DNA from: Blastocatellia bacterium
GTDB lineage: Bacteria; Acidobacteriota; Blastocatellia; RBC074
Length of the DNA: 64,000 nt
NCBI GenBank assembly: GCA_046331565.1
Contig: JAXLQP010000007.1
Span: 97,634 to 161,633, forward strand
Direction: 5' to 3'
The translations under genes and the position numbers were made by a program. This document shows, piece by piece, positions 32,045-51,482 of this stretch (position 1 is its first letter; each line of letters begins with the position of its first letter). The notes under the pieces are model-generated. The model had not been told where the DNA came from. It saw only the letters and a list, made by a program, of their open reading frames with translations, and ran no database searches.

Positions 32045-32719
32045 ATGCGAGCGAGCCGTAACGGCGACAAACGAGGCTGGTGGCTGGTCATCGTCATGAT
32101 GGCGGCGCCGTTGCTGCTGGCCATTTCAGCGAACGGTCTGGTCAGCCCTCGTTTGCGCGCTGAAGCGGCTCGCCCGATTTTGCTGCCCTTCACACCGCTT
32201 TATTCTGACTTCGATGGCGATGCCCGGCCTGACTGCGCCGAGCTTGCAGGCAGAAGTGATGAACAGAGCATTCGCCTGACACTGAGCGGTTCGGCTCCGA
32301 CACAGCTTCACTTTCATAACGACACGCGTGATCGCGGCAGGCTGCTGGCCGGTGACATTGATCACGACAATGATTACGACCTGGTCTGGGTTTCGACGAC
32401 TGAACCGCTCTTGTTCAGAATCTGGACGGGTGATGGCAAAGGCCATTTTCAGGCTATGCCTGATGATCGGCCTTTTCGCAAAGGCATCGGCGCGCTGCTC
32501 GGACTCGACGCCGAAACAGACATCTCAACACCGCCCGTTGCCCGGCACGCTGCTGATGCGGCGGCGCGGTCTGACGGGCCGGTTTTTGAATCTGCCCGTG
32601 TGACACCGGCTCCGCAGTTTTTCGCGGCTGACTGTCATCAGGCCGGATACAGGGATGTTGCCGCTGTCGCACTTCTGCCACTCACCGGGCGCAGCCCGCC
32701 TCTTGCTCTCTCCTGCTGA
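32045..32719 (+). CDS. Exported FG-GAP/VCBS-like protein ending in an RSPP motif (candidate arrest-peptide leader)
   Basis: Signal or TM segment, Ca-binding-type loops DFDGDARPD and DIDHDNDYDLVW, a low-complexity linker and C-terminal LTGRSPPLALSC*. Confidence 0.7.
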   Translation: MRASRNGDKRGWWLVIVMMAAPLLLAISANGLVSPRLRAEAARPILLPFTPLYSDFDGDARPDCAELAGRSDEQSIRLTLSGSAPTQLHFHNDTRDRGRLLAGDIDHDNDYDLVWVSTTEPLLFRIWTGDGKGHFQAMPDDRPFRKGIGALLGLDAETDISTPPVARHAADAAARSDGPVFESARVTPAPQFFAADCHQAGYRDVAAVALLPLTGRSPPLALSC

Positions 32720-32831
32720 TTTTATTTCCCTTGCTGAATCGCACGGTTTTCCGGCGCTGAAGTCGTCAACTGCCGTCAGGCATTGATGGTCAGCGTTCGT
32801 TACCGGCACACCCAGGGCACGGAGCAGAGCA

Positions 32832-34223
32832 ATGACCGAATTGAAGGAAGCCGATGAAATTCTGATCGCTGAGCCACAGACTGAACGACACGACATTACC
32901 CGGCAGGCCGAACAACTGATGACCGGTTCCGCATCGCCTCAGCAGTCGGCCACCGCAAAAGTGCTGACCGATGCTTCAGCAACAACTCACCGGGGGGGAT
33001 TCCGCTTCAGGCCTGCCTTCAGCCTGAATCGTGGGCACGCCAGTCTGATGCTGCTGGCAGTGGCGATGATTGCCGGAGTCTTTGCGTGGCTGCACTTCAG
33101 GCAGGCGCGTGAAGTCAGGAAACCGGATGAAGCTGCCAGTGTCGCGCCACCGTCTGATCTGATCGTGCCTGAAGCCGCACAACTCAGCCAGCTCGTCGTT
33201 GAGCCGGTCGGCACACAGACCGTCATCGAAGATCGCAACACGACCGGGCGGGTCAGCTTCAATGAAGATCGTCAGACGCCCGTGTTTACACCTTATGCCG
33301 GGCGAATTATTGAAGTGCTCTCCAGCCGGGGCGACAGCGTCAGGGCCGGTCAGCCGCTCGTCGTTATCGAATCGCCGGAAGTGATTGCCGCCTTCAATGA
33401 CCTGTCAGCCGCGCGTTCTGATGCCGACAAATCGCGCATCGCGCTGGAGGCCGCGCAGAAAGCCGCCGAACGCGCCCGCCGCCTGCACGAACGCGAAGCG
33501 ATTGCGACGCGCGATCTGCAACAGGCCGAAACCGATCTGGCCCGCGTGCAGGAAGAAGCGCGCCGCGCTGATGCCGCCGTTGCCATTGCTGAAAACCGCC
33601 TGGCGCTGTTTGGCAAAACCGCCAGTGAAATTCAGTCCGGCACGCGCACGTCAGAACTCAGAAGCGTTGACCGCCGCATCACGATTCGCGCGCCGATTGC
33701 AGGCACCATCGTTGACCGCAGAATCGGGCCGGGCCAGTACATCAAACCTGATGCGCCTGATCCGATGTTTCTGATTGCTGATCTGTCAACGCTGTGGGTG
33801 CAGGCCGATGTTTACGAAAGCGACCTGGCCGCCGTCAAAGCCGGTGCGCCCGTCCTGGTCAGCGTTGAGGCTTATCCGAATCGCACCTTTCCGGCGCGCA
33901 TCACCTTTATCAGTCCGACCGTTGATCCGGCCACACGCACGGTGCGCGTGCGCTGCCAGGTCAGCAATCAGCAGCACCTGCTCAAGCCGGATATGTTTGC
34001 GCGCATTCGCATCGCCGCCGCGCAGCGTGATGAACCGGTTGTGCCCGCGAGCGCGGTTGTTTCAGCCGGAAGCGATTCAGTTGTCTTTGTCGAAGCGTCG
34101 CCCGGCCACTTTCGAGAGCGCAGGGTCAGTGCCGGAACCGAACAGAAAGGTCAGGTGGTGATTACTTCAGGGTTGCAGCCCGGCGAGCGCGTGGTGACGA
34201 AAGGAGCGCTGCTGCTGAAATAA
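32832..34223 (+). CDS. RND efflux periplasmic adaptor (CzcB/CusB-like)
   Basis: N-terminal TM, lipoyl motifs (TPYAGRIIEV, RAPIAGTIVDRRIGPGQ), alpha-hairpin, DLSTLWVQADVYE and GLQPGERVVTKGA. Confidence 0.92.
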   Translation: MTELKEADEILIAEPQTERHDITRQAEQLMTGSASPQQSATAKVLTDASATTHRGGFRFRPAFSLNRGHASLMLLAVAMIAGVFAWLHFRQAREVRKPDEAASVAPPSDLIVPEAAQLSQLVVEPVGTQTVIEDRNTTGRVSFNEDRQTPVFTPYAGRIIEVLSSRGDSVRAGQPLVVIESPEVIAAFNDLSAARSDADKSRIALEAAQKAAERARRLHEREAIATRDLQQAETDLARVQEEARRADAAVAIAENRLALFGKTASEIQSGTRTSELRSVDRRITIRAPIAGTIVDRRIGPGQYIKPDAPDPMFLIADLSTLWVQADVYESDLAAVKAGAPVLVSVEAYPNRTFPARITFISPTVDPATRTVRVRCQVSNQQHLLKPDMFARIRIAAAQRDEPVVPASAVVSAGSDSVVFVEASPGHFRERRVSAGTEQKGQVVITSGLQPGERVVTKGALLLK

Positions 34224-34227
34224 CGCG

Positions 34228-37200
34228 ATGAATAAACTGATCGAAATCATTTTGCGTGAACGGCTGCTGGTGGTGTCGCTGGCGGTCGTGCTGCTTGTCG
34301 GCGGGCTGTTCGCTTTCAAAAAGCTCAATATCGAAGCTTACCCCGACCCGTCGCCGCCGACGATTGAAATCATCGCGCAGCAGTCGGGCTGGTCGGCTGA
34401 AGAGATGGAACGGCAGATCACCGTGCCGCTTGAAACGCAGCTCAACGGCATGCCGGGACTCGATCACCTGCGTTCGATTTCGCTGTTCGGTTTGTCAGAC
34501 ATCAAGTGCTATTTCAAATACGAAACCGATTACAACTTCGACCGGCAGGAGGTCTTGAATCGTTTGCAGATGGCCGCGCTGCCTGCGGGCGTGCAGCCGC
34601 AGCTTTCGCCGCAGTCGGCGGTCGGTGAAATCTTTCGTTATCAGCTCACGGGTGACGGCGTCAGCCTGATGGATCTGCGCACGGCTGAAGACTGGATTCT
34701 GGAACGACAGTTCAAGCAGATTCCCGGCGTCATTGATGTCGTTTCATTCGGCGGCCAGGTGAAGGAATTTCACGTTGATCTTGATCCGAACAAACTGATT
34801 GCCTTCGGCATCAGCGTGCCGCAGGTGATGAATGCGCTGGCGGGCAGCAATGCGAATGTCGGCGCAAACTACCTGGAACTTGGCGTGCAGAGTTACAACG
34901 TGCGCGGCATCGGGTTGTTTCGTGACAGTGATGATATTGGCAATGTCGCCGTGACTCAGAAAAACGGCACTCCGGTTTATGTCCGGCAACTGGGCGAAAT
35001 CAGCATCGGCGCGAGAACTCCGATGGGTCGCGTCGGGCGCGACGATCAGCCGGACATTGTGCAGGGCGTGGTGCTGATGCGGCGCGGCGAACAGTCATTG
35101 CCGACGCTCGAACGAGTGCGCGCCAAAGTCGAACAGCTCAATCACGGCGGCCTGCCCAAAGGCATCAGCATTGTGCCGTATTATGACCGCACTGACCTGA
35201 TCAACCTGACAACACGCACCGTGACGCACACGCTGATTGAAGGCATGGCGCTGGTCGCGCTGATTCTGCTCGCGTTTCTCGGCAACCTGCGCGCGTCGCT
35301 CGTCGTGGCGCTTTCGATTCCGCTCTCGCTGCTCTTTACGTTTGTGCTGATGGTGCTGCGCGGCGATTCGGCCAATCTGATTTCGATGGGCGCGATTGAT
35401 TTCGGCATCATCGTTGATGCGTCGGTGGTGATGATTGAAAACATCTGCCGCCATCTTGCCGAGCCGAATTATCCGTATCGCGGCAATGTGAAAATCACGA
35501 CGCTGCACGCGGCGCGCGAAGTCACCGTGCCGATTCTTTTTTCGACCGCGATCATCATCGCGGCTTTCATTCCGCTTTTCACGATGACCGGCGTTGAAGG
35601 CAAAGTGTTCGGGCCGATGGCGCTGACCTATGGTTTTGCGCTGACGGGCGCGCTGCTGCTGGCGCTGACGTTTTCGCCGGTGATGGCCTCGCTCATCCTC
35701 AAATCTGCCGCTGAAGAGAAAGAGACTTTTATCGTGCGCGGCATTCGTCGCGTCTATTCACGGGTGCTGCGGATTGCGCTGGCGCATCCGGCGCTGGCTG
35801 TGGGGACAGCCGTGCTGGTGCTGGCGGCAACCCTCGCCATCGTGCCGCTGCTCGGCGGCGAATTTATGCCGAAGCTGGAAGAGGGCAATCTGTACGTGCG
35901 CGCTTCGATGCCTAATACGATTTCATTCAGCTATGCCAGTCAGCTTGCCGATCAGATGCGGGCGATTTTCAAAAAGCACCCGGAAGTTACGACCGTCATC
36001 AGCCAGCTTGGGCGGCCCGAAGACGGCACTGACCCGACCAGTTATTTCAACTGTGAATTCGTGGTCGAACTCAAACCACTTGATGAATGGCGGCGCGGCT
36101 TTACGAAAGCCGATCTGGTCAGGCAGCTTGATGCCGAACTGCGCGCGATTCCCGGCATTGATTACAACTTTTCGCAGGCGATTCAGGACAACGTTGAAGA
36201 GGCCATGTCGGGCGTGAAGGGCGAAAATTCAATCAAGCTCTTTGGTGACGATCTCGAAAAGCTGGAAAGCGCGGCGCAGCAGATTGCCGCCGTGATGAGT
36301 CACATTTCAGGCGTTGCGGATCTCGGCGTGTTTGGCGAACTGGGACAGCCCAACCTGCTGATTCGCGTTGACCGGCAGCAGGCTGCGCGTTACGGCCTGC
36401 TGCCGAGTGATGTGAACGGCACGGTGCAGGCGGCGATTGGCGGCCAGGCCGTGACGCAGGTGCTCGATGGTGAACGTCGCTTTGATGTGGTCGTGCGCTT
36501 TCAGCCGCAGTACCGCGAAAACATCGAAGCCATTGCGGCCATCCCCGTCAGCACGCCCGACGGTCAGCGCATTCCGCTGCGGCAGGTGGCTGAGATTACA
36601 AAACAGACCGGCGCTTCGTTTGTCTATCGCGAAGACAATGCGCGCTACATTCCGATCAAATTCAGCGTGCGGGGCCGCGACCTGCAAAGCACGATTGCCG
36701 AAGCTGAAGCGCGGATCAGCGAGCAGGTGCAGTTGCCTGCTGGTTATCATTACGAATGGGCCGGTGAGTTTCAGGAATTGCAGGAAGCCGTGCAGCGATT
36801 GCTGATCGTCATTCCGGTCAGCATCGTGATTATTTTCTTTCTGCTTTACAGCGCCTTCAAAAGCGTCAGCGATTCGCTGCTGCTGCTGTGTTCGATGCCT
36901 CCGGCGCTCACGGGCGGCATTCTGGTGCTGTTTGTGACCGGGACAAATTTCAGCATTTCGGCGGCGGTCGGATTCATTTCATTGTTTGGCGTTTCGGTAC
37001 TCGGCGGCGTGATTCTGCTGGCGCGCATCAGGCAGTTGCGCGACGAAGGCGTGCCGCTCGGTGAAGCTGTGCGGCGCGGGTCAGAGTTACAGATGCGTCC
37101 CGTGCTGATGGCGGCGCTCGCAGCAGCCATCGGATTGCTGCCCGCGTCGGTGGCAACAGGGGTTGGCTCGGAAACACAGCGCCCGCTGGCCCGCGTGGTG

Positions 37201-37335
37201 GTCGGCGGCATGATCAGTTCAGCCGTAGTGCTTCTGCTGGTGCTGCCGGCGGTTTACCTGCTGGCCCATCGTTTGCTCGAAGAGCGAAAGGAAACCGGAA
37301 AACTGCTGACCGAAGAAGCCGGAGTTCGCGCCTGA
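34228..37335 (+). CDS. Heavy-metal efflux RND permease (CzcA/CusA family)
   Basis: 1035 aa. IEAYPD, SISLFGLS, GAIDFGIIVDASVVMIEN (HME proton-relay acids), GGEFMPKLEEG and RPVLMAAL...GSETQRPLA. Confidence 0.95.
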   Translation: MNKLIEIILRERLLVVSLAVVLLVGGLFAFKKLNIEAYPDPSPPTIEIIAQQSGWSAEEMERQITVPLETQLNGMPGLDHLRSISLFGLSDIKCYFKYETDYNFDRQEVLNRLQMAALPAGVQPQLSPQSAVGEIFRYQLTGDGVSLMDLRTAEDWILERQFKQIPGVIDVVSFGGQVKEFHVDLDPNKLIAFGISVPQVMNALAGSNANVGANYLELGVQSYNVRGIGLFRDSDDIGNVAVTQKNGTPVYVRQLGEISIGARTPMGRVGRDDQPDIVQGVVLMRRGEQSLPTLERVRAKVEQLNHGGLPKGISIVPYYDRTDLINLTTRTVTHTLIEGMALVALILLAFLGNLRASLVVALSIPLSLLFTFVLMVLRGDSANLISMGAIDFGIIVDASVVMIENICRHLAEPNYPYRGNVKITTLHAAREVTVPILFSTAIIIAAFIPLFTMTGVEGKVFGPMALTYGFALTGALLLALTFSPVMASLILKSAAEEKETFIVRGIRRVYSRVLRIALAHPALAVGTAVLVLAATLAIVPLLGGEFMPKLEEGNLYVRASMPNTISFSYASQLADQMRAIFKKHPEVTTVISQLGRPEDGTDPTSYFNCEFVVELKPLDEWRRGFTKADLVRQLDAELRAIPGIDYNFSQAIQDNVEEAMSGVKGENSIKLFGDDLEKLESAAQQIAAVMSHISGVADLGVFGELGQPNLLIRVDRQQAARYGLLPSDVNGTVQAAIGGQAVTQVLDGERRFDVVVRFQPQYRENIEAIAAIPVSTPDGQRIPLRQVAEITKQTGASFVYREDNARYIPIKFSVRGRDLQSTIAEAEARISEQVQLPAGYHYEWAGEFQELQEAVQRLLIVIPVSIVIIFFLLYSAFKSVSDSLLLLCSMPPALTGGILVLFVTGTNFSISAAVGFISLFGVSVLGGVILLARIRQLRDEGVPLGEAVRRGSELQMRPVLMAALAAAIGLLPASVATGVGSETQRPLARVVVGGMISSAVVLLLVLPAVYLLAHRLLEERKETGKLLTEEAGVRA

Positions 37336-37379
37336 ACGGCGTTCCGGGAAATTCTTCTGCCGCGTGTGAAAGGGAGTAT

Positions 37380-38522
37380 ATGGCAAGCCGGTATTTTCTG
37401 CGCAGGTCTGACCTGTGGTGGATTCAGTATGGGGTGGCCGTGCTGATCAGCGCGCTCGCCCTGAGCGTGACGCTGTTGATTGACGACCCGACAACTGAGC
37501 CGAACACGCTGCTGCTTCTTACCTTTGGCGTCATGCTCAGTTCCTGGTACGGCGGGACAGGGCCGGGACTGGTGACGCTGCTGCTGAGCGCACTGACTGG
37601 CGCTCACTTCATCTTCCAGCCAATTGGCTCGCTGACTGTTGGAAACGGCAGCGGGGCGTTGCGGATGATTGAGTTTGTGGCCGTTTCGTCCGTCATCATC
37701 TGGCTCAACGCCGTGCGACGGAACGCGCAGGCCAGGGCTGAAGCAGCACAGGCTGCCGCCGAGGAGGCGAGCCGCGCCAGAGATGAATTTCTGACAGTGG
37801 TCTCTCATGAACTGCGTTCGCCGCTCAATTCAATTCTCGGCTGGGCGCAGGTGCTGCGCAACAGGACGCCTGATCCGGCCACCCTGAGTCGCGGGCTGGA
37901 AGTGATTGAGCGCAACACACGGGCGCAGTCTGCACTGATTGAAGATTTGCTGGACGTTTCGCGCATCATCAGAGGAAAGTTGCGGCTGAATATCAGGGTC
38001 GTAGCACTTCCCACTATGATCAGGGACGCGCTTGACACGATCAGGCCAGCGGCTGAAGCCCGGCGGATTCAGCTTCAGTTACAGACTGACCAGGCGGTGT
38101 GTGAAGTGCCGGGTGATCCTGACCGTTTGCAGCAGATCATCTGGAACCTGCTTTCCAATGCCGTGAAATTCACGCCTCCGGACGGGCGCATCGAAGTCAG
38201 TCTGGAACAGATGACAGGTGAAGCCTGCATTCGGGTCAGCGACACCGGCTGCGGGATTGCGCCGGAATTTCTGCCGCACGTGTTTGAGCGTTTCACGCAG
38301 GCTGAGCGGGCGGCTCAGGTGACAGGCGGCGGTCTGGGGCTGGGCCTGGCGATTGTGCGCCACCTGGTCGAACTGCACGGCGGCACGATCAGGGCCGAAA
38401 GCAAAGGCGAAGGACTTGGCGCAGTCTTCACTGTCAGGCTGCCGCTGCTGAATCAGGCTCATCCGCAGCACAGCCGCGCCGAAGAGCAATCAGCGCTGCT
38501 GGCAAAAGGCATGCAACTCTGA
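37380..38522 (+). CDS. Sensor histidine kinase with DUF4118 (KdpD-like) four-TM input
   Basis: Four TM helices, [28 protein letters not shown] and [10 protein letters not shown]. No receiver domain. Confidence 0.9.
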
Positions 38523-38643: not shown

Positions 38644-38829
38644 ATGTTTGAGGGTCTTTTTCAACCACTTCACTTACTGGTCGTGCTGGGCATCGTGCTG
38701 ATTGTCTTCGGCCCGAAAAAGCTGCCGGAACTGGGCAAAGGCCTGGGCGAGGCGATTCGCGGCTTCAAGAGCGGCATCAGTGAAGATCATTCATCGGCAG
38801 ACGCCGACAAATCAGCAAAGCAAAAATAA
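38644..38829 (+). CDS. tatA: Twin-arginine translocase TatA/E subunit
   Basis: [32 protein letters not shown]. Confidence 0.95.
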
Positions 38830-38877: not shown

Positions 38878-39669
38878 ATGAACGCACACCGAAAACATTC
38901 AACCGAGCGCGGCAGAATCAGCCCGGTCGCGGTCATCATTGTCCTGGCCGTGCTGGCTTTCGGGCTGTTTGTCTGGCTGCGCCTGCGCGGATCGCGTGCG
39001 CCTGTGTCTGAACCGGGCAGCGTGGTAACGACGACGGCGGGCGGTCTGCCTGAAATGCGCAACAAGCCGCGCCCGCGCTCGGTTGATTTTCAGGGCTGCC
39101 CGCCCGAAGGCGACGGCGGCGACGCGGAACTGAATGTGCTGAAAAATCGCACGGATGAGGCCGCGTGGATTCCGGTGCAGTTTGACGCCATTCTCAATCT
39201 GACCTGGCCGCCTGGCGTCGAACGCAAAAACCGCAAAAACTGGTCAGTGGCTGACCGGGCAACGGTCGCGCGCTACGAAGGCATTCCGGTGTCAGTCGAA
39301 GGTTATCTGGCGAGCGCGAAACAGGAAGGGCCGGAATCACCGAACTGTCACGGCGCTGATGCGGAATGGCGCGATTATCACATCTGGCTGACCGCCGGGC
39401 CGGGCGAAGAACGCAGCCGTTCGATTGTGGTCGAGACGACGCCGCGCGTGCGTGTGAATCACCCGAACTGGCGGCTGGCCCTGTTGCAGCAGATTGCCCG
39501 CAACCATCAGCGCGTGCGCATCAGCGGCTGGCTGATGCTCGATCCTGAACATCCCGATCAGGTCGGCAAAACACGCGGCACGATCTGGGAAATCCATCCG
39601 ATTATGCAGATCGAAGTCGAGCAGCGTGGCCGGTGGATTCCGCTCGACAAACTGACCGAACTGAGCTGA
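38878..39669 (+). CDS. Membrane-anchored hypothetical protein, probable OB-fold
   Basis: N-terminal TM, then VEGYL..AK.EGPES.NC, DYHIWL, VVETTPR, VRISGWLMLD.EH and WEIHPI. Confidence 0.7.
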   Translation: MNAHRKHSTERGRISPVAVIIVLAVLAFGLFVWLRLRGSRAPVSEPGSVVTTTAGGLPEMRNKPRPRSVDFQGCPPEGDGGDAELNVLKNRTDEAAWIPVQFDAILNLTWPPGVERKNRKNWSVADRATVARYEGIPVSVEGYLASAKQEGPESPNCHGADAEWRDYHIWLTAGPGEERSRSIVVETTPRVRVNHPNWRLALLQQIARNHQRVRISGWLMLDPEHPDQVGKTRGTIWEIHPIMQIEVEQRGRWIPLDKLTELS

Positions 39670-39681
39670 GAAGGAGCCGCC

Positions 39682-39900
39682 ATGCGTAAAGCCGTTCAGT
39701 TGAAAGTCAATCTGTGGGTCGAAGGCGAAGCCGCGCCGAAAGATGATTTCGCCGCGCTCGCCATGCTGGCCGTGCATGAAATCATCGCTGCCGGACAGTC
39801 ACTGCATCCTGAACTGAAAATTTCAATCAGGCGCGTGACCGAACATTCATCTGATGATGAAGAGTCTGACCAGGCAGAAGAGAGCGCCGACAGGTTCTGA
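39682..39900 (+). CDS. Small hypothetical protein
   Basis: AGGAG RBS, 12 nt after the upstream stop, acidic tail. Confidence 0.65.
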   Translation: MRKAVQLKVNLWVEGEAAPKDDFAALAMLAVHEIIAAGQSLHPELKISIRRVTEHSSDDEESDQAEESADRF

Positions 39901-39916
39901 CCGCCACGCCCATGGC

Positions 39917-40498
39917 TCAGATGGCGGTCGGCTGTGTCGGGCGACAATTACGCCAGACCAGGCACCAGAGCCAGATGGCCGTCCCGCCAGTCAGCAGCGC
40001 CAGCACAATCCATAATTCATACCGCCGCAAATTTGTCAGGATCAGTTCCAGCGCGTGACCGAACGCATATCCGGCCAGGCCGACAGTGAGCGTCCAGACC
40101 GCGCCGCTCATCAGATTCAGCAGCAGAAAGCGGCGCGCGGAAAAACCGCTCGCGCCAATGACGAACGGTGTCGCAATTCGCAATCCCCAGGCGAAGCGAA
40201 AGCCCAGGATCAGCCGCAGCCCGTATTTGTCGAGCAGCTTTTGCACTCGTTGCAGGCGCAACTGCCACTTCGGGTGGCGGGCCGCCAGGGCGCTGCCCCG
40301 GTTACGGCCCAGCAGAAACCAGCCCTGATCGGTGAAAAACGTGGCCAGAAAGCAGGTCAGCATCACGCCCGGCAGACTCAGGTAACCGCGATGCGCCAGA
40401 AACGCGCCAATCAGCAGAAAGGTTTCGCCCTCGAAGATCGTGCCCGCAAACAGAATCGGGTAGCCGTAATGAATAATGAGCGATTCAAATGACATCAC
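39917..40498 (-). CDS. DedA family membrane protein
   Basis: YGYPILFAGTIFEGE, L..G.LA, D..WF.LGR and RF..GLR....F..G. Overlaps the upstream stop by 4 bp. Confidence 0.9.
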   Translation of the reverse strand: MMSFESLIIHYGYPILFAGTIFEGETFLLIGAFLAHRGYLSLPGVMLTCFLATFFTDQGWFLLGRNRGSALAARHPKWQLRLQRVQKLLDKYGLRLILGFRFAWGLRIATPFVIGASGFSARRFLLLNLMSGAVWTLTVGLAGYAFGHALELILTNLRRYELWIVLALLTGGTAIWLWCLVWRNCRPTQPTAI

Positions 40499-41091
40499 TG
40501 CTCTCTCCGTTTCAGTTCTGCGAGCTGCTGGCTGAGTTCCTGCAACCGGGCCATGATTTCGGCGTGCTGTCGTTCGATGACCGGCGGGGTGCGGCCCTGA
40601 ATGTAAAACGTGCCGCCCGGTTCCAGCACGCAGCGTTCGATTTCGCTGAGTCGCGTAAACCCCTGCCGGTGCGCCACCGTCAGCAGTTCTGATTCGGTCA
40701 GCAGTTCGCTCGCCAGCGCCTTGTGCCTGACCTTGCCCTCTTCAATCAGCGCGGTCGGTTCGCCTTCGATCAACTGATCGAGCCGCCGGTGTCTGAACAG
40801 AAAGCGCACCACCAGATAATTGGCCGCGAGCAGCGTGAATGCGCCAATCAGCCCGCCCGTCACCGAATTGTCTTCGCCAATGATCGCGTTCTGAACGGTG
40901 TTCGAGAGCGACAGCAGCACAACCAGGTCGAACGGATTAAGCTGCGCCAGTTCGCGCTTGCCGAACACGCGCAGCGCGACGACCAGAAAAATATAAACGA
41001 TCACCGGGCGCAGCATCTTTTCAGCGACCGGCAGCGAGAGCCGGAACATGTCGTGAGTCAGGGGATTGATCCATTCAAACAGATGAATCAT
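40495..41091 (-). CDS. DUF421/YetF family membrane protein
   Basis: LRVFGKRELAQLNPFDLVVLL.LSNTVQNAI, EGEPTALI..G and LEPGG.F. ATG 41091 with AAGGAGG RBS. Confidence 0.9.
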   Translation of the reverse strand: MIHLFEWINPLTHDMFRLSLPVAEKMLRPVIVYIFLVVALRVFGKRELAQLNPFDLVVLLSLSNTVQNAIIGEDNSVTGGLIGAFTLLAANYLVVRFLFRHRRLDQLIEGEPTALIEEGKVRHKALASELLTESELLTVAHRQGFTRLSEIERCVLEPGGTFYIQGRTPPVIERQHAEIMARLQELSQQLAELKRREQ

Positions 41092-41212
41092 GGTGTTGTT
41101 CCTCCTTGCAGGTTTGTGAGGCAATTCGCTGACCAGACCGCCGGGAACGGCCACTGTGATTGAAAACCGATCCGCGTCAGGATGAGCAAAGTCATAACCG
41201 GAGGGTGATGCT

Positions 41213-42876: not shown

Positions 42877-44319
42877 TTATCGCAGCGATCTGCCAACGGC
42901 CTGTTCAAGCTGCCACAGGCTGTTCTGGTAATCGGCGCGAGCCTGATTGTAAGCCGTGATCGCCTGATTATAAGAACGCTGCGCGTCGAGCAGTTCGAGC
43001 AGGCTCGACGCGCCTTCCCTGAAACTGAAGGCGGCGATGCTGCGCAGCTTGTCCATCTGCGTCAGGTTTTGCGAATTATAAAGTTCCAGCGTGCGCCGCG
43101 CCGTCAGATATGACTGATAAGCTTTTTCGACATCGGTGACGGTCTGCGTTTCGGCCTGACGCAACTGCGCTTCGGCGGATTTTTGCAGGGCTTCGGCCTG
43201 CGTGATTTCAGCCAGATGATTGTTGTGCACAAACAGCGGAACCGAGACGACCGCGCCCACGCTGCTGTCTGAACCGACGTGCTGATATTCGACGCCGACC
43301 GAAAGATCGCGGGTGCGCTGCGCGCGGGCGAGCGAAACGGCATATCCGGCGGCATCAAGCAGGTGACGCGCGGCCTGCACATCGGGCCGCTCACTGAGCG
43401 CAGTCTGACGCAGTTCAGCCAGCGACAGACTGACCGGCTGAGTATTGAAAGTGCTGATGATTTCGAGCGGCGCAAGCCGCAGCGAATCGGGCCACTGCTG
43501 ATCCGGACTGTTGCCGCGACTGAGCGCGGCCTTCTCGAATTTCACTTCACTCTCTGCGCTGACGGCTGCGACTTCTGCGGCGACCTGATCGGGTTTTGCG
43601 CCGAGCAGGTTCAGCACATCGCGCGCGGCCTGTTCATAACTGGTGCGCGCCTGCAACACGGCCTGCTGGTATTGCAGCAGCCCGGCCCTGATGCGAAAGA
43701 TTTCAACGCCTGCCAGATCGCCGTTCTCAACTCTGACTTCGGTCAGCTTTGCTGTCTGTTCGTACTGCTGTTCGGTGGCTTCAGCGAGCAGCAGATTTTC
43801 GCGGGCGAGCGTGGCTGCCGTGAACGCCTGGCGCAACTGAAAAAGCTGTGTGCGCACGGCGTCGAGCATCTGCGCTTCAGCGGCTTTGAGTTGCGCGTCG
43901 GCCTGTTCGGTGCGCAGTTCGCGTTTGCCGCCGCGTTCGATGGTCTTGTCCACGCGCACGGTGTAAGTCGAAGCCGCCGCCTGATTCGGATCGGTGTGCG
44001 CGAGGTTGTGCAGGAAGTTGCCGTTGAGCGCAAGCTGTTCAGCGCCGATGGTCAGCACCGGATTGGGTTTGTACCCGGCAATGAGTCGCGCCGCGCGACT
44101 GGCGTCAATCTGATAGCGCGCCGCCAGCAGCGTCAGGTTGCGTTGCAGCAGCAGTTGTTCGGCGGCTTCAAGCGTCAGGCGGCGCGGAATCGCCTGCGCC
44201 TTAACCGGCGGCGTCACCGTCTGTGCTGAAACATTGGGCGCAGACAGCCACAGCAAAATCAGCAGCGAAAATGTTCCGGTGTGATTTCTGAATTCGCGCA
44301 TTACTTCTCTGGCGCGCAT
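42877..44319 (-). CDS. TolC/CzcC family outer-membrane channel
   Basis: Signal peptide, LTLEAA....L..N..L.AAR, E.GGKR..R, RPD..AA, G.VVSVPLF..N and Y..G..SLLELLDAQR. ATG 44319 follows the GGAG RBS. Confidence 0.9.
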   Translation of the reverse strand: MRAREVMREFRNHTGTFSLLILLWLSAPNVSAQTVTPPVKAQAIPRRLTLEAAEQLLLQRNLTLLAARYQIDASRAARLIAGYKPNPVLTIGAEQLALNGNFLHNLAHTDPNQAAASTYTVRVDKTIERGGKRELRTEQADAQLKAAEAQMLDAVRTQLFQLRQAFTAATLARENLLLAEATEQQYEQTAKLTEVRVENGDLAGVEIFRIRAGLLQYQQAVLQARTSYEQAARDVLNLLGAKPDQVAAEVAAVSAESEVKFEKAALSRGNSPDQQWPDSLRLAPLEIISTFNTQPVSLSLAELRQTALSERPDVQAARHLLDAAGYAVSLARAQRTRDLSVGVEYQHVGSDSSVGAVVSVPLFVHNNHLAEITQAEALQKSAEAQLRQAETQTVTDVEKAYQSYLTARRTLELYNSQNLTQMDKLRSIAAFSFREGASSLLELLDAQRSYNQAITAYNQARADYQNSLWQLEQAVGRSLR

Positions 44320-44350
44320 GCTCAACTCTCCTGAACTCTGAAAGAAAAAT

Positions 44351-45442
44351 TCATCGCGTCATCGCGGCGCTGATCTCCTGTCTGATCGAATGCAGCGTCA
44401 TCCCGCTGCGCGCCAGCGCGACAAATCCGGCCAGCAGCAGCGGCACTGTCAGCAGCACAAAGACAACCAGCGAAAAACCCGTCGCCAGTGCCTTGTCCAC
44501 GCCAAACAGCGTCAGCCCGATGACCGTGAAAAACTGATACGAACCGGCATTGCCCGGCGCGCTCGGAATCGCCGTACTCAGATGCACGATCAGAAACACA
44601 ATCACTCCGACCTGAAACGGCACGCGCAGCCCGTACCCGATCATCACCATCCAGAACGCCAGCATTTGCAGGCCGAGGAACGCGAGCGAAAGCAGAAATG
44701 ACCAGTAAAAACCGGGCGTGCGCCTCATCCGGCCCAGGTGATGGCTGATGCGTTCGAGCATCAGCATCAGTGAACGCCAGGGCCGCCATTGCATCAGCCG
44801 CGAAGACTGCGGCGCTGAGGTTGATTTTCTGAAAGCCAGCACGATGAACAGTACTGTCGTCATCAGCATCAGCAGCCCGAACGTCTGCGCCGTTGCGCGC
44901 AGGCTGCCAGGCAGCGGAATGAAGCAGGCTGCCGCAGCAATGCCGATGGTCATCCACAAGCCGTCAAAGAGCCGTTCGATAATCATCGAAGGCACAATGG
45001 TCATCATCGTCGCGCCCATTCGTCGCGCAGCCAGGTAAGCGCGCACCAGTTCGCCCGCGCGCATCGGCAGCACTTCGTTGACGAACAGGCCGGTATAGAC
45101 GACCTGCGTTGATTGCAGCGTGGAAATTTCACCGGCAGGTTTGAGCAGCAGCTTCCAGCGCCAGCCCTGGCAGGTATAGCTCAGCACGTCGCACAACATC
45201 CCGGCCACGATCCACCACCAGTTGACGTGCCGCAACTGCGCGGCGAGTTGTGCCGGATGAACATCGTGCAGCACCCAGATCAGCCCGGCCAGCGCAAACA
45301 GATAACCGATGAGCGAATGCGAAGCGCGCAGCGGCGGTTGCGAGCCGATCTCAGCCGCGCCGCTCTGAGCCGTGTCAGGCGCGCCGAAGCTGCCCGCGTG
45401 CGTCAGGCTCCATTCGCTTTCAGCATTCATCCGCTGATCCAT
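44351..45442 (-). CDS. Lysylphosphatidylglycerol synthase TM / flippase-like protein (UPF0104)
   Basis: RWKLLL, G.F.N.VLP.RAGE..R.Y, ERLFD and IPSAPG..G.Y. Confidence 0.85.
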   Translation of the reverse strand: MDQRMNAESEWSLTHAGSFGAPDTAQSGAAEIGSQPPLRASHSLIGYLFALAGLIWVLHDVHPAQLAAQLRHVNWWWIVAGMLCDVLSYTCQGWRWKLLLKPAGEISTLQSTQVVYTGLFVNEVLPMRAGELVRAYLAARRMGATMMTIVPSMIIERLFDGLWMTIGIAAAACFIPLPGSLRATAQTFGLLMLMTTVLFIVLAFRKSTSAPQSSRLMQWRPWRSLMLMLERISHHLGRMRRTPGFYWSFLLSLAFLGLQMLAFWMVMIGYGLRVPFQVGVIVFLIVHLSTAIPSAPGNAGSYQFFTVIGLTLFGVDKALATGFSLVVFVLLTVPLLLAGFVALARSGMTLHSIRQEISAAMTR

Positions 45443-45450
45443 CGTTTGTA

Positions 45451-45482: not shown

Positions 45483-45490
45483 CGCTTTTC

Positions 45491-47275
45491 TCACCGCCCT
45501 GATCTGCCGCGTATTTCTGAAATGCGGCTCAGCGCAAGGCCGAGCTTTGGCAGATCAGTCACGTGACGGTAAAGCACGTAACGCGGTTCCCAGATGTCAG
45601 CGAATTTTGCCTTGTAAGAGCGCAGCCCGCCAAAGCTGAACAGAAAAGTCAGCCGCTGAAAAAACAGGTGCAGCGCCTTTTCGGCAGAAGTCGCCGCTTC
45701 GTGATCCTGAAAGCCGCCGAGCGGGGCCATCCCCAGATTGAGCCGCGTGAAGCCCTGTTCTCTGAGCAGCGCAATCAGCTTCAGCAGCAGAAAGTCCATC
45801 ACTGCGTTCGGCGCATCCACGCGATGACGCATCAGGTCAAAGGTCGCTTCACCGGCGCGGTATGACGGAATGATATTGACGAAAGCGAGCAGGCATCCGG
45901 TGGCGTCTTCGACCGTGACGATGGGCGTTGCGCGCAGGTAATGCGGATCGAAACTGCCCAGCGTGAAGGTGCGTTCGCGGCGACCCGGCAGCGTCAGCCA
46001 GTCATCTGAAATTTCGCGCAACTGCCTGAGCAGTTCATCGCTGACCGGCGCCTGGTGAAAGCGCTGGCGAAAGCCTGCTTTCTCGAAATGATTCAGACAA
46101 TGGCGCAGCTTCTTGTTCGCCCTGCCGTCAAGATTGAACTTCGTCAGATCCACAATCGCTTCGTCACCGACCTTCAGCTTTTTGAAACCGAGTTGCTGAT
46201 AAACGGGCAGGAAGTCAGGCAGCGTCTGATGAAACGCCACGCCCCAGCCGTTGTCTTCGCACCAGGAGCGAAACTGCTCAATTGTTGCGGCGAGTTCTTC
46301 AGGCGGCCCGACCGGATCGGCCAGCACAATCGCAAAGTGCGCGGCCACGCGATAGGCCACAAAGCTGCGGCCCGATTCGCTGAAAAAATACGATTTGTCC
46401 GGCCACAGCTTGAAATAATCGAGCGCCGCGCGCCCGTACTGGCTGGTGAGCGCCTGCGCCCTGACGCGTTCGTGCGGCAGCGTGTGAAAGCGATAAATGA
46501 TGGGGCGAAAGAGCGCAAACCCGGCATAGAGCAGCGTCGCCGTGCTGATGACATACAGCGAATCGAGAAACCAGGCCGCATACCGCGTGTGCGGCGTGAG
46601 ATGCGCGTCACCGATGAAAGTCAGAAACAGCAGCGTGCGATGAATCGAATCAGCCCAGTTGAAATTGATGCCGAACTGCCGCCGGTCAAGCAGCCAGAAT
46701 CCGCCGACGCCATAACCAAAAGCGGCCAGCGTGGCAATGCTCATTCTGAGCAGTACGCCGCGCCAGTCGGGCGGGCTGCTGCGCACCGTGAAACTGCGAT
46801 GCGTGGCAATCAGCACCACGCCGAGCAGCAGCGCAAGCAGCGCCTGGCCTGTGTCCTGGCGCGGCCCCAGGTGCAGCACGAATGACAGCGCCGACAGCGC
46901 CAGCACCAGTTGATAAGCGCGCTGCTTGCGTTTGTGAATGTTGATGGCTGAAACGATCAGCGCAAAACCGATGAGCAGTTGAAAAGAGCGGGGGAACTGA
47001 AAGAATTCAAGCGGAACGAAGTGATGCAGCCGCCCGCGATGCGCGTGTGGCGGCGGCGTGATGACCAGCCAGAGATTGATGATGCCGCTGCCGAGCGTGA
47101 CGAGCGTCACCAGCCGGATCAGCGTCCGGCGTTTGAAAAGAAGCCGCAACCATCGTTTGTGCGGCGCAATTCCGGTCTGTTCGCTGAGGCCGGATTCAGT
47201 GGCTGCTTCTGCCGCAATGAGATTTTCTGCCGTTTCATCTTCCGGCAGTTTGATGTCGGGGGCAGTGTGAAACAT
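45491..47275 (-). CDS. Phosphatidylglycerol aminoacyl(lysyl)transferase, MprF C-terminal/DUF2156 type with short TM region
   Basis: TM block, then DKSYFFS, DPVGP, G.EAI.DL..F.L.G, DLMR, NLGMAPL and GLRSYKAKF...WEPRY. Confidence 0.88.
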   Translation of the reverse strand: MFHTAPDIKLPEDETAENLIAAEAATESGLSEQTGIAPHKRWLRLLFKRRTLIRLVTLVTLGSGIINLWLVITPPPHAHRGRLHHFVPLEFFQFPRSFQLLIGFALIVSAINIHKRKQRAYQLVLALSALSFVLHLGPRQDTGQALLALLLGVVLIATHRSFTVRSSPPDWRGVLLRMSIATLAAFGYGVGGFWLLDRRQFGINFNWADSIHRTLLFLTFIGDAHLTPHTRYAAWFLDSLYVISTATLLYAGFALFRPIIYRFHTLPHERVRAQALTSQYGRAALDYFKLWPDKSYFFSESGRSFVAYRVAAHFAIVLADPVGPPEELAATIEQFRSWCEDNGWGVAFHQTLPDFLPVYQQLGFKKLKVGDEAIVDLTKFNLDGRANKKLRHCLNHFEKAGFRQRFHQAPVSDELLRQLREISDDWLTLPGRRERTFTLGSFDPHYLRATPIVTVEDATGCLLAFVNIIPSYRAGEATFDLMRHRVDAPNAVMDFLLLKLIALLREQGFTRLNLGMAPLGGFQDHEAATSAEKALHLFFQRLTFLFSFGGLRSYKAKFADIWEPRYVLYRHVTDLPKLGLALSRISEIRGRSGR

Positions 47276-47295
47276 CGGTGGTCAAAAAATGAAAA

Positions 47296-47395
47296 CCACG
47301 AAGTTCACGAAGATCACGGGGCGAAAGCAACAGAGTGGTCGCTACCGTTTCCCCTCACGCCATTACCTGCCCCGTGATCTTCGTGAACTTCGTGG
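47296..47395. repeat. CACGAA-family perfect 27-bp inverted repeat
   Basis: CCACGAAGTTCACGAAGATCACGGGGC (47296-47322) and GCCCCGTGATCTTCGTGAACTTCGTGG (47369-47395). Confidence 0.85.
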
Positions 47396-47572: not shown

Positions 47573-47935
47573 CTATTTCTTCTTCGCGGCGGCCTGCACG
47601 GTGATGTTGTTGGTCACCTGTTTCGCGCCGCAGCTTTTGGCAATGCCGTTGACGGCACCCTTGCTGCCGCCGTTTTTGGCCGTTCCGGTAAAGGTGGCGA
47701 CTCCGCCGCTGACGCTGACCTGAAAGCCCTGATCCTTGAGCTTCGGCGCGGCAGCGAGCTTCTGCTGAATGCAGGACTGAATATCGGCATCGCTTTTCGG
47801 TGCCTGTGTTTTGGCCGATTTGGCCGGTTTGGCCGGTTTGGACTGAGCAGTGGACTGCGCAAAGGCGCTCAGCGACAACACCACTGCCAGCATCAAAGCT
47901 CCCGTCAGACTGGTTATCAATGACTTGCGATTCAT
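47573..47935 (-). CDS. Secreted BON-domain protein
   Basis: Signal peptide, Ala/Lys/Pro linker, SDADI...I..KL...P.L....QVSVSGGVATFTG...G...V.NNI.V. AAGGAG RBS. Confidence 0.88.
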   Translation of the reverse strand: MNRKSLITSLTGALMLAVVLSLSAFAQSTAQSKPAKPAKSAKTQAPKSDADIQSCIQQKLAAAPKLKDQGFQVSVSGGVATFTGTAKNGGSKGAVNGIAKSCGAKQVTNNITVQAAAKKK

Positions 47936-48038
47936 GCTGAATGTTGTCTCCTTCTTCCTCTTTGTTGATCAGTCGGTCTGTGCGACGACAGCAGGCCTGC
48001 CAGAGGCGGCTCATTAACCTGCTGCTGCCTGTGCTGCT

Positions 48039-48054
48039 CGCAATGGCAGTGCCA
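48039..48054 (-). promoter_or_regulatory. Sigma54 promoter for the BON gene and the downstream MprF-TolC block
   Basis: Minus strand reads TGGCAC-TGCCA-TTGCG. Confidence 0.85.
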
Positions 48055-48362
48055 GAGTTCTGAAGGCGTGGTCAGGCAGCGCGCCCGGCTGACGAAAACT
48101 GCTGTCAAATCAGGACGAAAACCTTTTTGGAATGGCCGTTGATGAGAACCCTCAACGGGATGAAGGACGTCGCGTGATCCTGACGTTTTCGCCACACCTG
48201 GCGCAGCTTTGTACATATTTGACACTTGCTCCGGCAGATGAAATCAGCCCGGCTGATCAGGCCACCGGCAGGAAATGGAAAAACCAAATGCAATGCCTGG
48301 GCATCTTTCTGTCCGTTCATCTGTCGGCTCTTACCTGCGCTGCCGACAGATACTTTCGCGCC

Positions 48363-48378
48363 TGGCACCGCGCTTGCA
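48363..48378 (+). promoter_or_regulatory. Sigma54 promoter for the kinase/NtrC operon
   Basis: TGGCAC-CGCGC-TTGCA, about 45 nt upstream of TTG 48424. Confidence 0.85.
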
Positions 48379-48423
48379 CTAAAACGTGGCGGATCAGTCT
48401 GGTACGATAGGAGCGTGCATCCA

Positions 48424-49992
48424 TTGAAGCTTCATACCAAAACCACGCTGCTGGCTTCGACCATCACGGTCGCGGTGCTGATTGCTGCGCTGGTGACGAT
48501 CAGCGCCCGTGTCGTGGACGTGGTGCACGAAGATCAGAAGGAACGGGCGCGGCTGTGGGCCGTCAATCTGGCCGGGCATCTGACCGACCTGTCTTCGTTG
48601 CAGGCGAGCCATGACTTTCTGCGCTCAGCGAAACTGATTCGCGGCGGGCGGCCCGGTGTGGTCGGGGTGCGAGTCTGGAAGAATGTCGGCAGTGACTTTA
48701 TCGAAGACGAAGCCGCAGAAGGCAGCACTCCGGCTGAAACGATTCCGGCTGGAATCCAGGCGGCGCTGCGCGCCGGGCAGGTGGCTGAAACCGTGAGTGA
48801 AAGTTATTCCGGGCCGAACGATTCGCACTATCACGTTTATGCGCCCATCCTCGATAAAGGCCAGGTCAGCGGAGCCGTCGAAATCATCGAACGTCTGGAC
48901 GATCTGCCGTCGGTCGTGCTGAGTTATGCGCGCCAGGCGCTGTGGCTGGCGCTGACCGCCGTGGTGCTGATTACGCTTTCGATTTACCTGCTCTTTCGTC
49001 ATCTGATTTATCGCCCGATTGAAGGTTTGCTGGAGGTGATGTCGCGCGCGCGGGCAGGCGAACTTGACGTGCAGGCGCCGGAGCGACGGATGGACGAGAT
49101 CGGACGACTGTCACAGAAATTCAACAGCCTGCTCGGTCAGATCAATGAGATGACCAGCGAACGCGAACGCCAGCAGCTCAGGCTGCGTGAGCGCGTGCGT
49201 GAAGCGACCGCACAGCTTCAGCAGCGCAACGAACAGCTTGAAGCCACCAACCTGGAATTGTGGCAGACCTCGCGCCGCCTGACGCAGCTTGAACGCCTCG
49301 CTGCCGCCGGACAAACCGCCGCCAAATTCGCCCACGAAGTCGGCACTCCGCTCAACCTGATCAGTTGTCACGTGCAGTTGCTGCGCGATGAACTTTATCA
49401 GGATCCTGAAGCGGCTGACGCGCGCACTGAAATCATCAGCGAACAGATTGACCGCATCGAACGCATCGTGCGCCTGATGCTTGACCGCACGCGCATGGAA
49501 TCAGCCGAACTGTCGCCGCTCAATCTGAATGCGCTGATCGAACGCATCTGCACCGCCACGCGGCCCACGCTTGAAGCGCGCAATGTGCAATGCGAACGCT
49601 CGCTTGACCCCGCGCTGCCGCCGCTCGCCGGTGATGCTGATCGTTTGCAGCAGGTCTTTATCAACCTCATCAACAATGCGCTTGACGCGATGCCTGACGG
49701 TGGCCGTTTGCAGATCGGCACCCGTCTTGTCGGCCCGGTCGAAGGTAACGGGCACGGCCCGCACATTCTGGTTGAAGTGGCTGACACGGGTTGCGGGATG
49801 AATGCTGAAACGCGCGCGCACATCTTCGACCCGCTCTACACGACCAAGGAGCGGGGCCGGGGAACGGGCCTCGGCCTCGTCGTCGTCAGCCAGGTCATGC
49901 ACGAACACAAAGGCGAAATCGAGGTCGAAAGCGAACCGGGACAGGGCACGCGGTTCAGATTGCGCTTCCCGGCAGCCACCGCAAGCCCCTGA
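48424..49992 (+). CDS. Two-component sensor histidine kinase (TM, periplasmic domain, TM, HAMP, HisKA, HATPase)
   Basis: HAMP (RPI..L...M, DEIG.L...FN), FAHEVGTPLN, QVFINLINNALDAM and GTGLGL. Start moved to TTG 48424 (AGGAG RBS, downstream of the promoter). Confidence 0.9.
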   Translation: MKLHTKTTLLASTITVAVLIAALVTISARVVDVVHEDQKERARLWAVNLAGHLTDLSSLQASHDFLRSAKLIRGGRPGVVGVRVWKNVGSDFIEDEAAEGSTPAETIPAGIQAALRAGQVAETVSESYSGPNDSHYHVYAPILDKGQVSGAVEIIERLDDLPSVVLSYARQALWLALTAVVLITLSIYLLFRHLIYRPIEGLLEVMSRARAGELDVQAPERRMDEIGRLSQKFNSLLGQINEMTSERERQQLRLRERVREATAQLQQRNEQLEATNLELWQTSRRLTQLERLAAAGQTAAKFAHEVGTPLNLISCHVQLLRDELYQDPEAADARTEIISEQIDRIERIVRLMLDRTRMESAELSPLNLNALIERICTATRPTLEARNVQCERSLDPALPPLAGDADRLQQVFINLINNALDAMPDGGRLQIGTRLVGPVEGNGHGPHILVEVADTGCGMNAETRAHIFDPLYTTKERGRGTGLGLVVVSQVMHEHKGEIEVESEPGQGTRFRLRFPAATASP

Positions 49993-50108
49993 AAGGCAAA
50001 AATCAAAAGTTAAAAGGTCGGCACTTTTTCTTTTCAGATGGAAGCCTTTTTCCGAATCCCGCTTTTGCCTTTTCCTTTTGATTTTCAGCTTTCAGCCTTT
50101 TGATTTTT
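49991..50108. repeat. Inverted A-rich / T-rich heptamer-like arrays
   Basis: GAAAGGCAAAAATCAAAAGTTAAAAGG ... CTTTTGCCTTTTCCTTTTGATTTTCAGCTTTCAGCCTTTTGATTTT between the kinase and regulator genes. Confidence 0.65.
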
Positions 50109-51482
50109 ATGAAACGGATTCTGGTCATTGATGATGATCGCGCTTCGTGCAATCTGTTGCGCGAACTGTTCACGGCGCAGGGCTGGAGCACTGAAACGGC
50201 GCAGACGCCGCAACAGGCGCTCGAACTGGCCGACTGCGAAAAATTCGATCTCCTCGTCAGTGACATCAATCTTGAAGCCGGGCTTTCCGGCATTGATCTG
50301 CTGCGGCAGTTGCGCGATCAGTGCCCGGTGATTCTGATTACCGGCTTCGGCACGCTCGACACCACCGTGACCGCTTCACGCGAAGGCGCGTGGGACATCA
50401 TCTCAAAACCCTTCAAGGTTCAGGAAATCATCGCCACCGTCAAACGCGCGCTCGAACACAGCGACGAAAAAAACCGCGAGGCCGTGCCCGATTCGCTTTC
50501 GGCGCAGTACGAACACACGGGCCTCGTCGGGCGTTCACCGGCGATGCTTGAGCTTTACAAGGAGATCGCCCGTGTCGCGCCGTCGCGTTCGACCGTGCTG
50601 CTGATTGGCGAATCAGGCACCGGCAAGGAACTGATTGCCCGCGCCATTCATCAGCACAGCGCCCGCGCTTCGGGGCCGTTTGTGCCGGTTAATTGCGGCG
50701 CGCTGACTGAATCGCTGCTTGAGGCCGAACTCTTTGGTCACGTCAAAGGTTCATTCACCGGCGCAGCGGCTGACCGCAAGGGCCTGTGGGAAGAGGCCGA
50801 AGGCGGCACCCTCTTTCTGGATGAAATCGGCGAAACGTCGCAGGCCATGCAGGTCAAGCTGCTGCGCGCGCTTCAGGAAAAAGAGATTCGCCGCGTCGGC
50901 GCGGCAAAGACCACCAGAGTTGATGCCCGCGTCGTCGCCGCTACCAACCGCGAACTGGAACAGGAAGTCGCCGCTAAAAACTTCCGCGAGGATTTGTTCT
51001 ATCGCCTGAGTGTTGTCACGCTGCGGGTGCCGCCGTTGCGCGACCGCCGCAGCGACATTCCGCTGCTCGCCGAACGCTTTCTGCATCACGCCTCAGAAAA
51101 TGCCGGGCGCGGCCCGCTGCACTTTCTCGAAGACACGGTCAAAGTCCTGACGGCTTATGACTGGCCCGGCAACGTGCGCGAACTGGAATCAGCCGTTGAA
51201 TACGCGGCCCTGCGCGCACGCGGTTCAGAAATCGCACCTGAAGATTTGCCGCCCAAACTGCAGTCTGACGAAGTTCGCGCAAAGGCGGCCCGCTCGCCGC
51301 TCGCTGCGCTTTACGATGACCTGCCCACGCTCGAAGAACTCGAAAGCCGTTACCTGCGCCACGTCCTCGAAGTCGTCGGCGGCAACCGCTCACGCGCCGC
51401 CGAAGTCATGCGTATTGACCGCCGCACGCTTTACCGCATGGCTGAACGCTTTGGCCTCAGAAGCGATGACGACAGGGAATGA
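50109..51482 (+). CDS. Sigma54-dependent response regulator (NtrC/AtoC family: receiver, AAA+, Fis HTH)
   Basis: [58 protein letters not shown] and [20 protein letters not shown]. Confidence 0.96.

Follow-up and report, generated by a model that had tools for sequence, protein, structure and literature searches.

In a 64,000-nt window from the genome of a Blastocatellia bacterium, a soil acidobacterium (labelled G000), the interval 32045-51482 brings together genes for a sigma54-type two-component system (TCS), a BON-domain protein, an aminoacyl-phosphatidylglycerol (aaPG) synthase with its flippase, and the predicted parts of a tripartite metal pump. We consider this locus to be, probably, a mosaic particular to this genus, with a conserved sigma54 TCS-BON module as its base and a split MprF and the pump as cargo under one regulator. 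Gene identities were assigned by Pfam and NCBIfam profile scans of the window proteins. Each gene named in a first-pass annotation of the sequence was detected, and the interval also holds genes left unnamed there, i.e. orf224, orf263 and orf72 on the plus strand, a HAMP kinase and an NtrC-type activator. The same annotation had the interval bracketed by sigma54 promoters, which were indeed located at 31967 (+), 48039 (-) and 48363 (+). Among the relatives used for comparison, G002, G003 and G005 are congeners of G000; L007, L010 and L019 denote the loci of G003, G013 and G015, respectively.

The TCS-BON core and its sigma54 promoters

The sensor histidine kinase (48415..49992, +) combines two transmembrane (TM) segments, a periplasmic domain of ~150 aa, and HAMP, HisKA and HATPase domains. 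It is followed by an NtrC-type response regulator (50109..51482, +), a predicted sigma54 activator with a receiver, an AAA+ domain, the Walker A and GSFTGA motifs and an HTH_8 domain; rpoN is present in the genome. Divergently, an exported single-domain BON protein is encoded at 47573..47935 (-), in a frame that differs from that of the longest open reading frame at this position. Sixteen relatives have activator orthologues with at least 70% identity, in many cases without an aaPG synthase, and the TCS is divergent from a BON gene in G005, G014, G018, G020 and G028, mostly with sigma54 promoters. By these comparisons, the conserved core of the locus consists of the HAMP kinase, the NtrC-type activator and the BON protein. 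In G018, the BON gene is followed by genes for an HtrA-type protease and DedA, and a role in envelope stress would fit the core, given the HtrA protease and DedA near it in relatives.

A comparable layout is known from zraP-zraSR, in which an NtrC-type TCS controls its own sigma54 promoter and lies divergent from the sigma54-promoted gene of a small periplasmic protein (PMC4987338). The locus shares with ZraSR-ZraP of E. coli and Salmonella the sigma54-promoted TCS divergent from a gene for a small periplasmic protein, and the HtrA protease and DedA cargo of its relatives likewise fits envelope stress. However, the periplasmic partner here is a BON-domain protein rather than ZraP, and the kinase differs from ZraS in its sensor domain, which is unrelated, and in having a HAMP domain. 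Kinase and activator both score well below the ZraSR equivalog models, with 391 versus 760 for ZraR (NF007689/NF007688 set) and 148 versus 479 for ZraS.

Divergently oriented BON and TatA genes are also neighbours at L010 14082-14958 (G013) and L003 18055-19267, a few kb from the aaPG genes; a sigma54-like site was seen on both the BON and the TatA side in G013 and on the TatA side only in L003.

Scanning the window for the sigma54 consensus TGGCAC-N5-TTGCW returned four perfect matches, where 0.12 were expected from shuffled sequence. P3 (TGGCACCGCGCTTGCA; 48363..48378, +) is a perfect match and would serve the kinase-activator operon, while P2 (TGGCACTGCCATTGCG; 48039..48054, -) has one mismatch and would serve the BON gene and those downstream; a promoter at the P2 position is conserved in seven lineages. 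P1 (TGGCACAGTGGTTGCT; 31967..31982, +), again a perfect match, lies 63 nt before orf224, with which the pump operon begins; this promoter is unchanged in G002 and has a weaker version, TGGCATAATGGTTGCG, in G003. Midway between P2 and P3, we noted a putative pair of activator sites, GTGGCGAAAACGTCAG and GTGTCAAATATGTACA (48180..48225), 30 bp apart. Both blocks are conserved between G000 and G003, and similar sites are found upstream of the aaPG synthase promoter in five other lineages. A putative pair of the same two types, GTGTCAGTTATGCAGC and GTGGCAAAAATGAAGT (reverse strand; sites at 31835..31850 and 31864..31879), is located ~95-125 bp upstream of P1 with its members 29 bp apart. In G003 this pair, at the same spacing, forms the only conserved blocks of that intergenic region.

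From the P2-region sites only, we built a position weight matrix by eye and scanned with it the 300 bp upstream of all 83 sigma54-like promoters in the genome. P1 ranked first after P2/P3 themselves, with a top site of 14.1 and a two-site sum of 25.1, as compared to best values of 11.6 and 21.0 elsewhere. Within the window, no sites of the P1/P2 type were found at the other sigma54 promoters or in the other intergenic regions. In the congener G005, the orthologous TCS (activator 88% identical) is followed divergently by the BON gene, a conserved hairpin (see below), a sigma54 promoter and a pump operon in the order orf224-OMF-MFP2-RND2-TatA-HK4118-DUF421 (OMF, outer-membrane factor; MFP, membrane fusion protein or adaptor; HK4118, DUF4118 kinase; 2, second pump type), and no MprF is found there. 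Because the paired upstream sites agree in type and spacing, and because in G005 the TCS stands beside a pump without MprF, it is plausible, though only inferred, that the two flanking operons share one sigma54 activator.

A split MprF, a conserved hairpin and a divided pump

On the minus strand downstream of the BON gene, an aaPG synthase (45491..47275, -; 594 aa) with the C-terminal MprF TM segments and an LPG_synthase_C domain is followed by a stand-alone PplT/LPG_synthase_TM protein (44351..45442, -; 363 aa), the equivalent of the MprF flippase domain. The synthase scores 262 bits against LPG_synthase_C (PF09924), and among solved structures the Lys-PG synthase domain 4v36 matches it best (E = 8e-62); PplT scores 164.7 bits against PF03706 and 71.8 bits against TIGR00374, all above the cut-offs. 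On the model for bifunctional MprF (NF033480, >600 bits), the synthase reaches 435.5 bits and covers model positions 319-837 only, whereas PplT aligns weakly to positions 14-304 (E = 8e-4); by sequence, PplT matched none of the MprF chains in the PDB. Taken as sequences, synthase and flippase appear to be a naturally split MprF, i.e. MprF-like in predicted function with no bifunctional protein. Synthase and flippase parts of MprF have been shown to work as separate proteins (PMC2774229, PMC4324311).

The synthase is patchily distributed, being found in 10 of the 61 relatives surveyed. The PplT gene adjoins it or lies nearby in nearly all fetched relatives that have it, G009 being an exception in which no PplT was found. 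The usual layout in the family is the TCS and, divergently from a sigma54 promoter, genes for the synthase, a VirJ/AcvB-type hydrolase and PplT, with no OMF gene at these loci; G013 carries in addition an HtrA-type protease between the synthase and VirJ genes. Like the C-terminal TM part and synthase domain of the solved MprF/LpiA structures, to which it aligns, the synthase of G000 would belong to a known kind of enzyme, and the hydrolase placed between synthase and flippase in relatives recalls the LpiA-AcvB (AtvA) operon of Rhizobium and Agrobacterium (lpiA-acvB, PMC13197417). The locus differs from these systems in having two genes, synthase first, and a very divergent PplT; the hydrolase is missing in this genus, an OMF gene is appended, and sigma54 and a TCS appear to be in control. 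At two loci of family relatives (L008 10425-11921 and L010 12413-13903), a second, shorter LPG_synthase_C protein of ~497 aa is encoded a few genes past the synthase and is followed by a giant ~1140-aa GH18-deacetylase-GT2 fusion; neither is present at the locus of G000.

Between the BON and synthase genes lies a conserved hairpin (47283..47395, -), made of a 27-bp perfect stem and an invariant 46-nt loop, with a U-tract after it and its end ~7 nt ahead of the synthase ATG. It is conserved in G002, G003 and G005, with two compensatory pair changes in G003. It follows the BON gene in G000 and G005 and is kept in G003, from which BON is absent. An Rfam scan of 31-52 kb returned nothing real, placing the hairpin in no known family and giving no T-box, and scans for terminators and sigma70 promoters performed no better than on shuffled sequence. 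A related hairpin with the same CACGAAG-repeat stem occurs between two genes elsewhere in the genome (C1:959045-959212). The element resembles a terminator or attenuator that follows BON, and could also be the 3′ end of a small RNA. Being terminator-like and located before the synthase gene, it would make the lipid genes and the OMF gene dependent on its read-through or processing.

The pump operon begins on the plus strand with orf224 (32045..32719, +) and continues with a CzcB/CusB-like periplasmic adaptor (32832..34223, +; HlyD_D23; TIGR01730 at 189.9 bits, cut-off 94.9) and an HME-RND permease (34228..37335, +). The permease is a full-length match to the CusA/CzcA family TIGR00914 (968.2 bits against a cut-off of 701.45), and its nearest solved structure is ZneA (760 bits versus 562 for CusA). 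Its TM4 motif DFGIIVDASVVMIEN (DFG-X3-D-X5-EN) aligns with DFGIIVDGAIVVMEN of ZneA; we take the DFG...D...EN motif in TM4 to be the mark of the divalent-cation type of HME-RND. Because of its closeness to ZneA and this motif, we assign the permease to the divalent-cation, ZneA/CzcA-like pumps on sequence grounds.

As the first-pass annotation stated, no OMF gene adjoins the adaptor and permease genes; the OMF (42877..44325, -) is encoded on the opposite strand behind PplT, ~5.5 kb from the permease gene (ends at 42877 and 37335, respectively). It contains two OEP repeats (PF02321, 157.4 bits over two stretches, above the gathering score), falls below the NCBIfam cut-offs of the NodT and TolC subfamilies, and its sequence matched no solved structure. 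The suggestion that this distant TolC-type protein partners the pump gains support from relatives. The genome has ~18 OMF genes, most of which stand beside their own pumps. Orthologues of this one occur in 10 relatives (58-81% identical), and in every genome with readable surroundings they sit in a pump operon. In G037, G043, G021, G009 and G010, OMF orthologues (58-62%) are contiguous with permease orthologues (71-79%), in the order orf224-OMF-adaptor-RND, with orf224 detected only in G037, G021 and G010 and the OMF gene broken in G010. In G005, G015 and G022, the orthologue stands beside a second pump type, RND2, which is 44-46% identical to the permease studied here. Moreover, nine orthologous OMFs form one clade (support 100/99), separate from own-genome paralogues. 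It is therefore well supported, from sequence and gene context, that this OMF is the pump's own outer-membrane partner: by orthologue contiguity, adaptor, permease and OMF are a predicted tripartite set whose genes are not adjacent in G000.

How the set came apart is suggested by the congeners. In G003, a single strand carries aaPGS-PplT-OMF-MFP2-HhH-RND2-orf220-MFP-RND-HK4118-TatA-orf263-orf72 (aaPGS, aaPG synthase), followed by DedA on the other strand. Relative to this order, the orf224-to-DUF421 block of the window is inverted and MFP2 and RND2 are absent, with no RND2 orthologue found anywhere in the genome. A search for inverted repeats flanking the inverted block gave none that convinced, the best pair being 29 nt at 79%. 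G002 shows the window's gene order with five deletions, which removed the OMF gene, Fet4, the 5′ part of DUF1003, most of orf263, and orf224 through TatA. These absences are read as losses because remnants of orf224, orf263 and DUF1003 persist; pump and OMF were lost together and the lipid genes retained. The divided pump is thus best explained as a by-product of an inversion plus the loss of a second pump, rather than as a designed architecture.

The exported HhH_3 (ComEA-like) protein, encoded at 42449..42772 (-), stays beside the OMF gene in G000; in G003 (L007 6103-6447) and G015 (L019 7934-8323), it is flanked by the genes for the adaptor and the RND protein of the second pump type.

With CzcCBA and ZneCAB of Cupriavidus metallidurans, the predicted pump shares the set of OMF, adaptor and HME-RND, a permease above the CusA/CzcA cut-off that is nearest to ZneA and has the DFG...D...EN motif, and, in relatives of the locus, the canonical contiguous operon. 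It differs in that the OMF gene belongs to a separate operon, on the opposite strand at a distance of 5.5 kb and behind lipid-modification genes, and in that the pump operon starts from a sigma54 promoter with a leader-like gene for an exported protein, in place of a CzcRS-type sigma70 arrangement.

The leader-like orf224 and neighbouring genes

The exported product of orf224 has homologues at L007, L018, L014, L016 and L021. These proteins are ~200-270 aa long, exported by a signal anchor, and carry the FG-GAP-like, Asp-rich motifs DFDGD...PD and DIDxDxDxDLVW. Near the C-terminus, 3-9 residues before the stop, an R-[AGS]-P-P motif is invariant in 6/6 homologues, as RSPP in G000, RAPP in G003 and RGPP in the four others. 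Stalling at RAPP and RGPP is established (PMC10951233, PMC12992588), and known metal-responsive leaders include CutF and CruR (PMC9973294, PMC9426467). With its export, its place at the head of a metal-efflux operon and its R-[AGS]-P-P, orf224 looks like an oversized relative of such stalling leaders, whether of the RAPP or the CutF/CruR type. In contrast to them, it is much larger, contains a conserved domain of FG-GAP-like, Asp-rich sequence, is without a Cys/His motif, and in this genome bears RSPP in place of the RAPP or RGPP of the arrest peptides. The intergenic RNA after orf224 yielded no fold sequestering the ribosome-binding site that was better than shuffles (z = -1.58).

Downstream of the permease gene, the operon continues with an orphan DUF4118-HisKA-HATPase histidine kinase (37380..38522, +), a TatA/E paralogue (38644..38829, +), which is an extra copy among three TatA-like genes in the genome, and, at its end, orf263 and orf72 (38878..39900, +). 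Neither of the latter two matches a family; orf263 is a signal-anchored protein, and their G003 orthologues are 88-90% identical. The DUF4118 kinase adjoins TatA again in G003, G005 and G009. A sigma54-like site at 37262, before the DUF4118 kinase gene, was dismissed as chance, having one mismatch in its GGCAC part and no counterpart within one mismatch in G003. Comparing G000 with G003 (window 34228-37335 against L007 12162-15269), the permeases are 94% identical, while their operon neighbours diverge more (adaptor 66-67%, orf224 48%, kinase 78%, OMF 80%). This suggests that the RND gene was exchanged recently or else that constraint is very uneven.

Between the two flanking operons lie DUF421/YetF (40495..41094, -) and DedA (39917..40498, -), in this order and with overlapping start and stop codons, followed by DUF1003 (41213..41803, +) and a Fet4-like Iron_permease (41917..42348, +). 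For DUF421, a start at 41478 was rejected in favour of the ATG at 41094, which stands behind AGGAGG. TatA, the DUF4118 kinase and DUF421 recur near the TCS-BON module in G003, G005 and G009, as does TatA in G013 and L003 and DUF421 in L003. DUF1003 and Fet4 were absent from all other fetched loci, except for a DUF1003 remnant in G002. The first-pass annotation had viewed the genes it listed as one co-regulated surface-charge and metal-efflux system. For the flanking operons this is plausible, given the paired sites and G005, but it does not extend to DedA-DUF421 and DUF1003-Fet4, which have neither a sigma54 promoter nor upstream sites of the P1/P2 type. DUF1003 and Fet4, confined to this lineage, are better taken as lineage-specific passengers than as parts of a shared system, and DedA-DUF421 are recurrent neighbours, probably with a promoter of their own.

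Outside the interval and beyond the activator gene, a perfect sigma54 promoter (54124-54139, -) heads a gene pair for a cytochrome c and a di-haem cytochrome c peroxidase (52334-54247); no P1/P2-type sites were found at this promoter.

One regulator or separate modules

If the locus is the mosaic we propose, the HAMP kinase and NtrC-type activator would form its core with the divergent BON gene, sigma54 promoters firing both ways from around the activator pair. One cargo, behind BON and the hairpin, would run from the aaPG synthase through PplT and the OMF to the periplasmic HhH protein; the other, 16 kb off and in opposite orientation, would be driven by P1 through the same kind of paired sites and run from orf224 to orf72. 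The OMF gene would have been parted from its pump when the 10-kb pump block was inverted and the second adaptor-RND pair, which still adjoins the OMF gene in the congener G003, was lost. On sensing an envelope signal, the kinase would phosphorylate the activator, which in turn would switch on BON, aaPG synthesis and flipping, the OMF and the pump operon, leaving the membrane surface less anionic and exporting divalent metal cations. A further step can be put forward only tentatively: the TCS-BON platform might have captured a split MprF and a CzcCBA-type pump in such a way that pump assembly is gated by read-through of the lipid operon, since the pump's only OMF gene now sits behind the lipid genes and the attenuator hairpin, with orf224 as a second, translational gate.

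A number of observations weigh against a single regulator. The proposal of one co-conserved system found no support in synteny, as aaPG module and pump are distributed independently and linked only in this genus, and outside it they are not co-conserved. The hairpin, a strong terminator-like element, stands between P2/BON and the synthase gene, so that lipid genes and OMF may be expressed very differently from BON. The matrix is weak genome-wide, with ~190 matches scoring >=14 and 71 chance pairs; rebuilt without the genus's own sites, it recovers neither pair, and it finds no sites in the orthologous intergenic regions of G028, G020, G013 and L003, including the BON-TatA promoters of the latter two. 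With 142 first-look candidates, the genome is rich in sigma54 activators, another of which could serve P1, and the orthologous pump of G009 has a different activator paralogue nearby (46% identical). Finally, no conserved His, Cys or metal-ligand motif was found in the periplasmic domain of the kinase, and without a conserved His or Cys in this sensor domain nothing points to metal as the signal. Several of these points suit an alternative that we regard as rather unlikely without dismissing it, in which two unrelated modules became neighbours through regional plasticity. The TCS would then control BON and MprF only, and the pump operon would respond to metals independently through another sigma54 activator, which may receive its input from the orphan DUF4118 kinase. 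Pumps do occur without the synthase (G037, G043, G021, G010, G005, G015 and G022), and the synthase without a pump nearby (G013, G016, G023, G036, G002 and G009). However, P1 came first among 81 other sigma54 promoters for P2-type sites, the match in site types and spacing is conserved in G003, and in G005 the TCS lies directly beside the pump operon where MprF is missing.

Two other explanations concern the OMF and the state of the locus as a whole. The OMF might have ceased to serve the pump and been recruited by the lipid operon, e.g. to let aminoacylated lipids or the HhH protein out or to be their outer-membrane partner; its gene starts 25 nt after PplT here and overlaps PplT by 4 nt in G003, and in G000 neither an adaptor nor an RND gene adjoins it. 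We hold this to be very unlikely, and the least probable of the explanations, as its orthologues stand in canonical adaptor-RND operons in other genomes with readable context, family relatives with aaPGS-VirJ-PplT have no OMF there, and G002 kept the lipid genes while losing OMF and pump. Scarcely more probable is a decaying locus, in which the separated OMF and pump would be relics heading for loss and contributing little. The five deletions with remnants in G002 are of this kind, and G001 seems to be without the locus altogether; yet all reading frames are intact in G000, the permease has retained its 94% identity to that of G003, and P1 is both perfect and conserved.

All parts of the locus are of known kinds, and only their combination and regulatory wiring are unusual; as no part is new in kind, the value of the finding is regulatory and evolutionary rather than mechanistic. 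In general terms, the locus illustrates that an orphan outer-membrane channel can be matched to its pump by comparing gene order across genomes, and that the rearrangement of operons can bring part of a pump under the regulation of an operon unrelated to it. Should the mosaic with a single regulator prove true, one regulator would couple a lower membrane surface charge, through aminoacyl-phosphatidylglycerol, with the export of divalent metals, a sensible combined defence for soil bacteria against acid, metals and cationic peptides. It would also provide a first handle on the widespread, unstudied sigma54 kinase/activator-BON module of Acidobacteria.

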